Of a stretch of 15,202 nt of DNA, positions 2,085-8,220 are shown piece by piece. The notes beneath the pieces were generated by a model that made no database searches, was not told where the DNA came from, and worked only from the letters and a program-made list of their open reading frames with translations. This DNA comes from Candidatus Micrarchaeota archaeon (GTDB lineage: Archaea; Micrarchaeota; Micrarchaeia; Norongarragalinales; SBBD01). Position 1 is the stretch's first letter. Each line of letters opens with the position of its first letter. Position numbers and translations under genes: made by a program. The stretch spans positions 1 through 15,202 of the forward strand of contig JBBSVW010000029.1 in NCBI GenBank assembly GCA_038046605.1. The letters are read 5' to 3'.

Positions 2085-4553
<2,469 letters not shown>

Positions 4554-5573
4554 CGCACCAATAACTACGACCTGTCCCCTGCTCTTGAGGCCGTCCATTG
4601 TGGTAAGTAGCTGGGATACAATTCGCTTTTCGACTTCGCCGACTACTTCCTCCCTCTTTGGGGCAATTGCGTCGAGTTCGTCTATGAAAATTATAGATGG
4701 CGCGTTGTCCTCCGCCTCCTGGAATATATTCCGGAGTTTTTCCTCAGCTTCCCCTACGAATTTGGAAACGATTTCGGGACCGTTGATTGTTATGAAGTGC
4801 GCTTCGGATTCGTTTGCCACAGCCTTTGCAAGGAGGGTTTTTCCTCCGCCGGGAGTTCCATAAATCAAGACTCCTTTTGGAGGCTCGATTCCCAGCCGTT
4901 CGAATAATTCAGGGTGGCGCATGGGGAGCTCGACCATCTCCCTGATCTTCTGCACTTCATCCTTCAGGCCGCCAATATCCTCATAGGAAATGGTGGCAAT
5001 TTTCCCAAGCTCCTTCATGGGCTCCTCTTTGAGCGTGACTTCGGTGGTTTCGTTGACAAGCACAATGCCGGTTGGGAGCGTTTGCGCAACCGCAAAAGGG
5101 AATGAGGTTCCAAAAACATTGACGGAAAGCACATCCCCTTTTGTGAGAGGTTTGCCCATCAGATTCTTCTTTACATAATCGGCAAAGCCAGGAGCGTACC
5201 TAGATGGCTGATTTGGCGCAAGTACAAGCTTCTTTGCGATTTTAGCATCGGCTTTGCTAATTTTGACGCGATCCCCAAGGCCTACGCCGGTATTTTGCCT
5301 TAAGATGCCATCCATGCGGATTATATTGGAGCCTTCATCCTGAGGGTGGGAGGGAAGGACTATTGCGCCGGTGGTTTTGCCCTTTCCGCCCTTGATTTGT
5401 ATTATATCGCCGGTTGTTAGGCCAAGGAGTTTTCGTGCCTGTGAATCAATCCTGACAATCCTTTTGCCGTAGTCTATCTGCATCGCTTCCGCGACTTTAA
5501 GCTCTATCTCATCAACCATAAGTGGAACACCGATTTTGCGAGTGAAAAGAAGTGGAATAACTTCGTAGCCAAT

Positions 5574-5581
5574 ATTTAAAT
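5574..5581 (-). promoter_or_regulatory. Putative TATA box for cdc48
   Basis: TTTAAATA on the minus strand about 55-62 nt upstream of ATG 5519, compatible with a short leader containing GGTG. Confidence 0.5.
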
Positions 5582-5613
5582 GGGTTGGGTTGATCTTAAA
5601 TTTTGCTTTCAGG

Positions 5614-5802
5614 TTATGGTTCCTTGGCATGATTTCGCTTGAATCCTTCGAAATCTATATTGGGCATTGAACCCCACATCTCATCTACTGTAGGCACTTT
5701 CCCTTTTTTGATTCTTTCCTCAACTTCCCTTGAAATTTCTTTCGCTAATTGCATTGGGTCTTTTTCACTTTTCGATCTCCGTCCCTTCGGTCTTTTTTTC
5801 AT
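5614..5802 (-). CDS. Small protein carrying a copy of the antitoxin C-terminal segment
   Basis: ATGA overlap with the PIN gene stop; C-terminus [15 protein letters not shown] matches GSMPRIDVAGFKKEH of the AbrB protein. Confidence 0.8.
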
Positions 5803-6173
5803 AGCATCATCACGTCTTTCAACTTGGCGAAATCCTTATCCCCAGTGACAACTTTTGCACCTAACTGTTGCGCAGCGGCATAAGTGAATGCATCAATTGC
5901 TTTCAGGCCGTGCTTCAAACGCATCTCTGCGGCAAGCGTTGCGAGTTCGGCATCTATAGGAATTATCTGAGCTTCCGTTTTTATCATCGTTTCAAACTCC
6001 AGCAATTTCGCCCTGCCATATTTCTCAGCTACCCTGTAATGAACCTCGTACAAATTGCCTGCCGTAGTATAGAGTTCGCCCTGGTTTTGCTCAATCATTT
6101 TAACTACTTTGCTTCCAGCTGCGCCTTCTTCTAGGATTAAGATCCATGCGAACGTGTCGAGCATCAGTTTCAT
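5799..6173 (-). CDS. vapC: PIN-domain VapC-family toxin
   Basis: LMLDT, NLYEV, IDAFTYAAA, VVTGDKDF: conserved acidic PIN residues present; 124 aa; directly downstream of an AbrB-type gene. Confidence 0.92.
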   Translation of the reverse strand: MKLMLDTFAWILILEEGAAGSKVVKMIEQNQGELYTTAGNLYEVHYRVAEKYGRAKLLEFETMIKTEAQIIPIDAELATLAAEMRLKHGLKAIDAFTYAAAQQLGAKVVTGDKDFAKLKDVMML

Positions 6174-6392
6174 TCAATCATCCGCATCATGCTCCTTCTT
6201 GAAACCAGCAACATCAATCCGGGGCATGGAACCTAGGAAATCCCTTGCCCTCAAAATGGGCTTGAAAACCAGTTCCTGCCGCTCATGCTCGGTTACAACC
6301 TCAACTATGAATTTCCTCGCCGGCACCTGCTTGCGGATTTCTTTTGGGAGTACCACCCGCCCGCTGTCATCCACATTTACCACTATGTCCAT
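6174..6392 (-). CDS. vapB: AbrB/MazE/SpoVT-family antitoxin
   Basis: VDDSGRVVLPKEIRK swapped-hairpin signature; its stop abuts the PIN start (TGAATG); AGGTGG ribosome-binding site upstream. Confidence 0.9.
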   Translation of the reverse strand: MDIVVNVDDSGRVVLPKEIRKQVPARKFIVEVVTEHERQELVFKPILRARDFLGSMPRIDVAGFKKEHDADD

Positions 6393-6455
6393 TTATGCCA
6401 CCTTTTGAATTTATGGTAATTATTAGAAGAATGGCATTTTTAAGGGTTGTGGTAA
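6377..6455. promoter_or_regulatory. Toxin-antitoxin promoter with five RTGGYAW motifs at exact 18-bp spacing (putative operator array)
   Basis: Plus strand: TTACCAC 6377, ATGCCAC 6395 (both inverted), ATGGTAA 6413, ATGGCAT 6431, GTGGTAA 6449. A minus-strand TATA-like CTTAAAAA at 6437-6444 sits between the last two. Confidence 0.7.
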
Positions 6456-6458
6456 AAT

Positions 6459-7082
6459 TCACTTTCCTTCAAGTAGCGCTTTGCGTTTATCTAGGAAAAT
6501 CCTAATGGCGTCACGGGCTTCTGGAGGAATGCGATACGAAATATCTATCTGATTGCCCAGCTTATGCTTGAGCCAATCAGGCCTAATTGCAATCAGCAAT
6601 TTTCTTCTAACAAGGGGAGAGAGCATTTGATCGACAGCACGGGTAATGCTCATATGAAGAAGCGCAACTTGCAAATCAGACGTGTCATATTTTGGAAAGC
6701 CCATCTGTTTCAAATTTCGGTGTAGCTTAATAATTTCTTCTACTTCGCTCATTGGTTTGGAAATAATACGAAAGAATCTATTCGCATGACTTACCCTCGT
6801 GGCCAAATTAACTATTCTTCTTGCATCTGATTTTGAAGGCGACCATAATTTGCGCCGTTCACTTTCAAGTGCACGATCATATTCAGGCACCCCCCCGACA
6901 TCTTGCAAGTGAAAATGAAGTATGTGAGACCCCCTTAGCATTTCATCTGGATCATTTTTTGTGCGCCTTTTCACGAGATGCTCATTTGCTATATGCGATT
7001 TGGAAAGCATGATCAGTTGGGATCGCGAAAGATCCATGCGCTCCAATTGAGTTACCAATTTTTCAGTCGCTTTTGATGGCAT
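6459..7082 (-). CDS. Hypothetical basic protein
   Basis: 207-aa ORF starting immediately after the prenyl synthase stop (TAAATG); no family recognised. Confidence 0.7.
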   Translation of the reverse strand: MPSKATEKLVTQLERMDLSRSQLIMLSKSHIANEHLVKRRTKNDPDEMLRGSHILHFHLQDVGGVPEYDRALESERRKLWSPSKSDARRIVNLATRVSHANRFFRIISKPMSEVEEIIKLHRNLKQMGFPKYDTSDLQVALLHMSITRAVDQMLSPLVRRKLLIAIRPDWLKHKLGNQIDISYRIPPEARDAIRIFLDKRKALLEGK

Positions 7083-8141
7083 TTAGATTTTCCTCTCAAT
7101 CAGGTAGTCCGCGAACTCCTTGAGCTGTTTTTTTGCCTTCGAATTGGGAAGCACTTTTGAGAATTTTTCCCATGCATTCAATACCAGCTCTTTTGCTTTT
7201 CCTCCGGAATATTCGAGGGCGTCAGTTCCCCTAATTAATGAAATAGCTTCGCCAATGATAAGCTGGTTTTTGGTGTGGGAATTGAGTATGAAGAGGAGGC
7301 GTTGGCGCTGGTTTGGATTAAGCTGTTTTAATGCCCTAAGTACTATGAGCGTCCTCTTTCCTTCTGAGATATCCCCGCCGATTTCCTTTCCGTATCCCTC
7401 CGAAGCGGTCAGGTTCAATATATCGTCCTGAATCTGGAAGGCGATTCCGATTGATTCGGCAAATTCGCCGGCTAATTCGATGTTCTTTTGGGAAGCGCCT
7501 GCAAAGAGAGCACCAAGTTTTGCAGCCATCCTTGCCAAAGTGCCGGTTTTGAATGCGCACATCTGCAAATAGCCATCCTCGGAAATATCCGCATTTGTTC
7601 CCCGATGCCACAAGATGTCAAAGCCCTGCCCGTAGGAGAGGTTGATCATCTCCTGAACATAAATGGAATATGCTGAATTTATTATTTTGGGGGAAAACTT
7701 GGAGGGATTTTCAAGCAATATTTTCAGGGGCAGGTAATACATCGCATTTCCGGCGTTTATCGCAATATCTCCACCATAAATCTTGTGGATGGTTAGTTTT
7801 CCCCTGCGCAAATCCGAATTGTCCTCCACATCATCGACCATAAGAGTGCCATTATGGATGATTTCTGGAATGATGGAATATGGAAGGAGCTTTTTGGGGT
7901 TTGCGCCAAAGGCCTCCCCGCAAAGCAGCATCAATGCAGGACGCCACCTCTTCCCGCCCCTTCCAAGAAGATCCCAGATGGGCTCGTTAAGGGCAAGTCC
8001 GGCGCTTTTCTCATCGTATGAATAGCGCGCCTTTCCAAGTATGCGCAGAAGGTTTTTTTTGTCCGCCTTAGGGGGGAAAAAATACAAAATCTGCCTATCG
8101 ATTATTTTCCGCGTCTTTTTGAGGTTATTTTCGAGTGCCAT
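7083..8141 (-). CDS. Trans-polyprenyl diphosphate synthase (GGPP synthase family)
   Basis: GGKRWRP, FARM DDVEDNSDLRRG, GQGFD, KT, SARM FQIQDDILN, GDISEGK. Start reassigned to ATG 8141 (MALENN) with GGTTGAT upstream. Confidence 0.93.
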   Translation of the reverse strand: MALENNLKKTRKIIDRQILYFFPPKADKKNLLRILGKARYSYDEKSAGLALNEPIWDLLGRGGKRWRPALMLLCGEAFGANPKKLLPYSIIPEIIHNGTLMVDDVEDNSDLRRGKLTIHKIYGGDIAINAGNAMYYLPLKILLENPSKFSPKIINSAYSIYVQEMINLSYGQGFDILWHRGTNADISEDGYLQMCAFKTGTLARMAAKLGALFAGASQKNIELAGEFAESIGIAFQIQDDILNLTASEGYGKEIGGDISEGKRTLIVLRALKQLNPNQRQRLLFILNSHTKNQLIIGEAISLIRGTDALEYSGGKAKELVLNAWEKFSKVLPNSKAKKQLKEFADYLIERKI

Positions 8142-8220
8142 AGCATCAACCAGTAGATGAATGCAAACCTGTTTTAATAAGCTTATTTTCAATGAACGAT
8201 TTGAAATTGGGTAGCCTGCC

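Follow-up and report, generated by a model that had tools for sequence, protein, structure and literature searches.

A small open reading frame with a VapB-type tail behind a vapBC pair in a variable genomic slot of a Candidatus Micrarchaeota archaeon

Introduction

In the toxin-antitoxin (TA) systems omega-epsilon-zeta and PaaR2-PaaA2-ParE2, the regulator and the antitoxin are separate proteins: the neutraliser is without a DNA-binding domain, the regulator does not neutralise, and the order of the three genes is conserved. If orf62, the small open reading frame (ORF) considered in the present study, encoded a second antitoxin, the likeness to these systems would be neutralisation by a protein without a DNA-binding domain. 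The locus differs from them in that its VapB would keep both functions, in that the third gene follows the toxin gene and in that the gene order is unique to one species.

In VapBC systems of the AbrB/SpoVT type, an antitoxin-first operon of two genes encodes a swapped-hairpin domain of about 45 residues, which is followed by an aromatic and hydrophobic tail of about 25 residues lying on the PIN toxin (PMC3384007). As set out in the structural account of the Shigella flexneri complex, the DNA-binding domain of VapB comprises residues 1-45, and residues 46-67 are an extended tail whose aromatic residues mediate its wrapping around VapC (PMC3384007). The vapBC pair described here fits this arrangement, but it is only remotely similar in sequence to the solved members, the tail motif of its family was found in this archaeal order only (at E<=0.001 a search of 333 genomes from the other orders of the class gave no match), and an extra tail-only ORF, orf62, follows the toxin gene.

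Orphan antitoxins have been discussed in a population study of Klebsiella, according to which they may mean degrading pairs, anti-addiction or cross-talk with active pairs (PMC7192599); both their possible origin from degrading pairs and their use in anti-addiction are already described there. Like those orphans, orf62 is antitoxin-derived, has no toxin of its own and lies in a region of TA turnover (PMC7192599). Unlike them, it contains only the toxin-binding end of 28 residues, which is joined to unrelated sequence, and it comes immediately after an intact toxin gene from the same family, the stop codon of which it overlaps. A described VapBC system with a tail-only ORF behind the toxin gene was not found in a limited full-text literature search, which is not meant as a claim of absence.

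The DNA analysed (the window) is a complete contig of 15,202 nt from a genome (G000) of 1.64 Mb that is 90.7% complete. All runs in which window DNA was found (n = 8) are groundwater metagenomes, with no RNA run among them, and groundwater is also the origin of one of the three nearest syntenic loci in the genome collection. In a preliminary description of the window, abrB, vapC and orf62 were read as a three-gene operon in which the toxin stands between two proteins with the same C-terminal tail, and it was proposed that orf62 is a second antitoxin or decoy uncoupling neutralisation from autoregulation. The premise that VapB antitoxins act on VapC through their C-terminal segment agrees with the Shigella complex, in which the tail of VapB wraps and inhibits VapC (PMC3384007). 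The present comparison with related genomes and metagenomes points to an ordinary two-gene pair, followed by an ORF whose tail belongs to the VapB family and was derived from a member other than the neighbouring VapB.

Results

Organisation of the locus

All features considered are located on the minus strand, in the order polyprenyl synthase, orf207, vapB, vapC, orf62 and CDC48. The synthase gene (8192..7083; Pfam polyprenyl_synt, 1.1e-63) is followed by orf207 (7082..6459), which is without a Pfam match and fills a variable slot upstream of vapBC. The region upstream of vapB (6393..6456), by its position the putative promoter and operator, resembles the vapB upstream regions of the genomes G004 and G006, and a Shine-Dalgarno-like AAGGTGG precedes the ATG of vapB. 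The vapB gene (6392..6174, 72 aa) and the vapC gene (6173..5799, 124 aa) abut stop to start in the junction TGAATG, and the ATG of orf62 (5802..5614, 62 aa) overlaps the TGA of vapC in the junction ATGA, with a Shine-Dalgarno-like GTGAT stretch ahead of the orf62 start. The tight coupling of the three genes that had been claimed in the preliminary description was thus found as described. No terminator-like site was seen between vapC and orf62, so orf62 is probably carried on the vapBC transcript. A scan for sigma-70 promoters and hairpin terminators, which is not designed for archaea, gave nothing useful, and an Rfam search of the window returned no family.

Downstream of orf62, the CDC48 upstream region (5520..5608) with a TATA-like TTTAAATA marks the edge of the island, as judged from blastn and the sequence. 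The start of the intein-containing CDC48 gene (from about 5519 to 2085) was placed at 5519, since the N-termini of the relatives read MVDEIELK. Contigs from three further runs, which belong to two studies, cover the stretch 5454-5982 and show 0 to 1 differences from the window; as these contigs have the same arrangement, the junctions between vapC, orf62 and CDC48 are not an assembly artefact. In the composition profile the GC content of the island is slightly lower (0.40-0.46 vs 0.45-0.51), a difference without diagnostic value. An exact direct repeat of 11 nt (5603-5622 and 5897-5916) was taken to be a chance occurrence.

The CDC48/VCP intein gave matches to Intein_splicing and LAGLIDADG_3. 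Within the LAGLIDADG region, a single in-frame TGA at 3519-3521 (minus strand) splits CDC48 into the ORFs 5519..3519 and 3494..2085, which are in the same frame; possible readings of this TGA are a nonsense mutation, an error of sequencing or a site of read-through.

The vapBC pair

VapC matches the PIN family PF01850 with an E-value of 1.2e-19 and 71.5 bits against a cut-off of 23.6, and its profile matches the solved VapC 7by2_B (E 3.5e-9). In an alignment of 11 sequences (A3), D6, E43 and D94 are invariant and D112 is nearly invariant; we take these to be the catalytic acidic residues of the PIN active site. VapB has a putative AbrB/SpoVT-type N-terminal domain and a C-terminal toxin-binding tail. 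Its match to PF04014 (E 0.0013, 19.1 bits) does not reach the gathering score of 24.7, and it agrees with a match to the SpoVT N-domain in the PDB (E 0.0035) in which the GRVV-PKEIR stretch is aligned, both being sub-threshold. The resemblance to SpoVT/AbrB lies in the N-terminal 40 residues, and VapB can be aligned from end to end with 14 further VapBs of its family. The antitoxin gene is located directly upstream of the toxin gene in the window and in the 16 related pairs. Judged by domains and gene order, the predicted working unit of the locus is an ordinary AbrB-type type II vapBC pair.

A second vapBC pair of the same family is present in G000 on contig C104, with no third gene. In the VapC paralogue encoded there, a Cys replaces the fourth conserved Asp (SGCEHF vs TGDKDF in the family), and this paralogue may be inactive.

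The VapC of the window is 50-52% identical to those of G006 and G004, which are 60% identical to each other, the ranking by the polyprenyl synthase being opposite, and in the VapC tree it falls in a polytomy with the clade of G004 and G006 and the C104 paralogue. Taken together, the VapC identities, the synthase ranking and the tree suggest that the cassette from which the tail in orf62 survives may have been replaced by the present vapBC pair, or that this pair may be a paralogue of it.

The tail of orf62

Between GSMP and H, 10 of 15 residues at the C-termini of orf62 and VapB are identical, and four residues follow the H in both. The similarity is above chance (10 of 18 identities in pairwise BLASTP, E 8e-7). 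Synonymous codon differences occur at three common residues (Ser, Ile and Gly). The 10 of 15 identities, the equal distance to the stop and the synonymous codon differences had been noted in the preliminary description and were recovered here. In order to place the orf62 tail (5617..5700, 28 codons) within the family, a profile of 15 full-length VapBs was used from which orf62 had been left out. It gave 39.6 bits for the whole of orf62, 39.5 bits for the tail alone and -0.6 bits for the N-terminal half alone, and its match spans residues 28-61. On the family model the orf62 tail reached 38.4 bits, and only 3 of the 15 bona fide VapB tails, which range from 17.6 to 43.8 bits in leave-one-out scoring, are higher. 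The orf62 tail is therefore canonical and undecayed by its family score. The tail of the window's own VapB (its last 29 residues, 6177..6263; alignment A2) is a divergent member of the family with a leave-one-out score of 23.8 bits, and a tail-only ORF in G011 scored 42.5 bits.

Over 28 codons, the orf62 tail is 36% identical to the tail of the window's VapB in protein and 49% in DNA, vs 68% and 65% for the VapB of G006 and 50% and 63% for that of G004; for the small ORF of G011 the values are 59% and 60% over 27 codons. The tail DNA is 79.5% identical to the 3′ end of the G006 vapB gene over 44 nt. The tail of orf62 is thus not a recent copy of the neighbour's, and since it is closer to the VapB tails of the sister species G006 and G004, it was derived from another member of the family. 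The residues that orf62 shares with the neighbouring VapB are those of the family consensus. Of the claim that the toxin is flanked by two proteins with the same tail, the presence of a real family tail in orf62 was confirmed, while the sameness of the two tails does not hold at these identities.

The differences between the orf62 and G006 tails are distributed over the three codon positions as [8,5,16], with a bias to the third position and with 9 synonymous and 9 non-synonymous codon changes. In the comparison of two functional tails, G006 vs G004, the distribution is similar ([4,5,15]). The third-position bias shows that purifying selection acted during most of the divergence, and it does not tell the timing of this selection relative to the truncation.

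The N-terminal half and the reading frame of orf62

The N-terminal half of orf62 (5701..5802) contains a basic tract and a predicted helix, and no relative of it was found. The statement of the preliminary description that orf62 is without an AbrB domain stands: a Pfam search of orf62 gave no match at E<=1, the family score of its N-terminal half was equalled or exceeded in 28% of 500 shuffles of that half, and local alignments with five AbrB domains gave shuffle p values of 0.08 to 0.96. An AbrB ancestry based on the likeness of LAKEISREV to LPKEIRKQV was considered and rejected as not significant (p 0.17). No source of the N-terminal half elsewhere in the genome was detected by blastn-short or tblastn. 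Its codon score (-0.10 per codon) puts it among the bottom 1% of in-frame 34-codon windows from the genome's long genes and within the top 4% of out-of-frame windows, the scores of vapB (0.54) and vapC (0.40) being typical by the same measure. Upstream of the tail, the frame is open for 45 codons with the start at codon 34, which is reached by 3.6% of composition-matched shuffles.

With the whole orf62 protein as query, only orf62 itself was found, both in a word-index search and in an exhaustive phmmer search of 1.84 billion representatives; the former result is weak evidence, since the window's evidently real VapB also found only itself there. A targeted search of 61 genomes is stronger evidence; in it, matches at E<1e-3 outside G000 occurred in G006, G011, G004 and G021. 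These are three VapB C-termini and the small ORF of G011, and the N-terminal half is part of none of them. For orf62, the best feature score in the ESM Atlas was 0.82, which is chance level, and the Atlas model has a pLDDT of 0.59. Prediction of a complex of VapC (alignment A3) with orf62 (A4) scored 0.00 in two runs and bears neither way, the fold of the partner being itself uncertain. A cognate toxin gene immediately downstream of orf62 was not present; this place is taken by the CDC48 upstream region and CDC48, and the sole PIN gene lies upstream.

The variable slot between synthase and CDC48

In blastn comparisons with the same-genus genomes G004 and G006, the window is collinear over the synthase gene, the region ahead of vapB together with the initial codons of that gene, the 3′ portion of vapC, and CDC48 plus the stretch upstream of it. 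Positions 6456-6376 of the window are 72% identical to G006 and positions 6445-6334 are 73% identical to G004 (E 6e-12), and homology resumes downstream at 5608 (G004) and 5521 (G006). In G006 and in metagenome contig L041 the slot holds vapB and vapC only, and in G004 it holds vapB and vapC followed by a gene of 264 aa before CDC48; none of the three has orf62 in the slot. The slot is empty in two further genomes of the genus (G003 and G005) and in one of another genus (G007), where the synthase gene is directly followed by CDC48. It contains a 108-aa ORF in G001, a weak orf207 homologue and then CDC48 in G002, and orf207, vapBC and orf62 in the window. As the slot contents differ in this way among genomes, the slot is by comparison of sequences an insertion hot spot, and orf62 is, among the genomes compared, unique to the species of the window. 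The identity of the synthase to that of G000 is 76% in G005, 73% in G001, 71% in G002, 70% in G004, 69% in G003 and 68% in G006, and thus these identities do not put G000 nearest to the vapBC-bearing genomes.

Several other features of the slot were recorded. The 264-aa ORF of G004 (L010, G004:C31, 294-1088) has a twin-arginine-like N-terminus and, lying between vapC and CDC48, again illustrates the variability of this position. The orf207 homologue of G002 (G002:C11 and G002:C85; L054 and L055) is located at the same position with 23% identity (E 8e-5), and orf207 is not present at the slot in G004 and G006. Most of orf207 is enclosed by an inverted repeat of 21 nt with 81% complementarity (6493-6513 and 7074-7094). 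In the island, genes of mobile elements were not observed.

Distribution of the tail family

A tail profile of 29 positions (A2) was searched against 68 genomes of the order and matched 16 places in 10 of these genomes. One match, in G006:C14 (E 0.0097), was spurious and located inside an unrelated 133-aa ORF. Among the 15 credible tails, 10 form the end of an AbrB-type ORF with a PIN gene behind it, one is cut by the contig start and also has a PIN gene after it, and four are without an AbrB domain, namely orf62, a 68-aa ORF in G011:C15, a 49-aa ORF in G009 and a 131-aa ORF in G016. Three of these four, those with visible surroundings, are located beside complete PIN-type pairs. A metagenome scan with a four-sequence alignment (A5) gave at least 8 confirmed loci out of 583 pattern matches. 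Among the matches listed are the window itself, one spurious locus (L047, a match on a high-GC contig that overlaps an ORF of 1,117 aa) and six AbrB and PIN pairs, of which L044 and L045 show no differences in the ORFs that were compared. Together with the 10 AbrB-fused tails and the contig-cut tail of the 68 genomes, the six metagenome loci among the matches listed make 17 vapBC pairs with the tail. A tail-only ORF behind the toxin gene was found only at the window's pair and at none of the 16 other pairs, the metagenome part of this count being among the matches listed. With the two-gene loci that occupy the same slot in G004, G006 and L041, it follows that orf62 is not conserved. Conserved three-gene synteny, for which the preliminary description had proposed a search, was not observed, and the dedicated three-gene architecture is not supported; non-conservation of orf62 is among the outcomes that the preliminary description itself had named as counting against its reading.

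Two of the AbrB-less ORFs deserve a separate description. The 131-aa ORF of G016 (L032, G016:C1, 1189-1584) has a UPF0175 domain (E 1.2e-13) followed by a VapB-type tail; it comes after a UPF0175 and DUF3368 pair in a TA-rich stretch and looks like a chimera that arose by recombination between antitoxin modules. The 49-aa tail ORF of G009 (L033, G009:C115, 1456-1605) has no AbrB domain; a coiled-coil gene immediately precedes it, and the contig ends 13 nt away.

A parallel relic in another family of the order

The genome G011 belongs to another family of the order, and its 68-aa tail-only ORF has radA on one side and a second PIN pair on the other. The metagenome loci L044 and L045 are collinear with the flanks of this ORF (84% over 1,191 nt and 83% over 1,392 nt), and between the flanks they have an entire pair, with vapB of 73 aa and vapC of 125 aa. 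Of this pair of 702 nt, G011 retains 63 nt, which is the tail. The ORF of G011 is the remainder after deletion of most of a vapBC pair, and this synteny establishes that deletions in the family can take away both the toxin gene and the AbrB domain, while the tail stays behind as part of an ORF. At the site of orf62, no second full vapBC pair was present in the relatives examined. As no genome with an intermediate state was found, the decay history of orf62 itself is one that we infer.

Discussion

On balance, we lean towards the reading that orf62 is an orphan antitoxin fragment that arose by cassette turnover in the variable slot and has no dedicated role. In that case orf62 would be a young, species-specific and chimeric ORF. 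Gain of vapBC cassettes, recombination and deletion in the slot would have left the fragment behind, the last 84 nt of which would stem from the 3′ end of another vapB of the same family. These 84 nt would have been joined to 102 nt of unrelated sequence that happened to be open back to the vapC stop, and orf62 would now lie on the vapBC transcript. Should orf62 be translated, the intact tail could bind toxins of the VapC family, and no sign was seen that the ORF has been retained for that purpose. This origin is suggested by the variability of the slot, by the absence of orf62 from G004, G006 and L041, by the foreign or ancestral type of its tail, by the parallel in G011 and by the orphan N-terminal half with its atypical codons. 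It also accords with the Klebsiella study, in which orphan antitoxins ascribed to degrading TA pairs are reported as common in other genomes (PMC7192599). Against it speak the undecayed tail, which outscores 12 of the 15 bona fide tails as well as that of the window's own VapB, the bias to third codon positions, the open frame reached in few shuffles and the classic coupling overlap with the vapC stop. Moreover, AbrB-less tails recur in the order (4 of 15, three of them beside PIN-type pairs), which could suggest retention and not chance.

In the second-antitoxin model of the preliminary description, as spelled out here, orf62 would be translated by coupling to vapC, and its tail would fill the VapC groove. 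Without a DNA-binding domain it would buffer free toxin and add nothing to operator binding, which would uncouple neutralisation from autoregulation. The canonical tail, the ATGA overlap with the GTGAT stretch before the start, the rarity of so long an open frame and the third-position bias are all consistent with this, and the window's VapC is 50-52% identical to just those VapCs whose VapB tails most resemble that of orf62. In the solved AbrB-type VapBC complex, the tail alone makes the inhibitory contacts (PMC3384007). We nevertheless consider a second antitoxin rather unlikely, because none of the 16 other pairs (for metagenomes, among the matches listed), including the three loci in the same slot, has an orf62-like ORF, because the N-terminal half is an orphan with atypical codon usage, and because the parallel case in G011 is a deletion relic; the contigs of the three other runs, with their 0 to 1 differences over orf62, offer no variation by which selection could be gauged. 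Of the preliminary reading as a whole, the undecayed tail, the missing AbrB domain and a position fit for co-transcription and coupling remain, while the same tail and the dedicated architecture do not. A more general version of the idea, in which AbrB-less VapB tails are a recurrent product of vapBC turnover in the order and are kept as free-standing mini-antitoxins, orf62 titrating VapC and leaving the operator untouched, appears similarly doubtful.

Two further readings have less in their favour. A fragment kept for immunity or anti-addiction would neutralise the VapC of incoming or displaced cassettes and allow cassette replacement without killing. The tail of orf62 is most like that of a G006-type cassette and unlike the neighbour's, the slot exchanges cassettes, and the Klebsiella study proposes anti-addiction as a role of orphan antitoxins (PMC7192599); set against the same non-conservation of orf62 and an island in which mobile-element genes were not seen, such a role seems improbable. 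A recent local duplication, by which the 3′ end of the neighbouring vapB was copied behind vapC, would explain the GSMP, ID, GFK and H common to both tails and their equal distance to the stop. These common residues are the family consensus, and over 28 codons the tail of the window's VapB is far less similar to that of orf62 than the G006 tail is, in DNA as in protein, which makes this duplication very improbable.

If orf62 is a relic of cassette turnover, the locus would provide a clean example, dated by synteny, of TA cassette turnover in the small genome of a DPANN archaeon. The part of an antitoxin that binds the toxin could then outlive the rest of its pair, which would be helpful for annotation and not surprising. 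If orf62 is made and neutralises VapC, nature would have provided a minimal antitoxin peptide and, with it, a natural experiment in which neutralisation is parted from conditional co-repression, as is now done only with engineered truncations. As a mini-antitoxin, orf62 would give the TA pair a neutraliser that is blind to autoregulation, or immunity to incoming cassettes.
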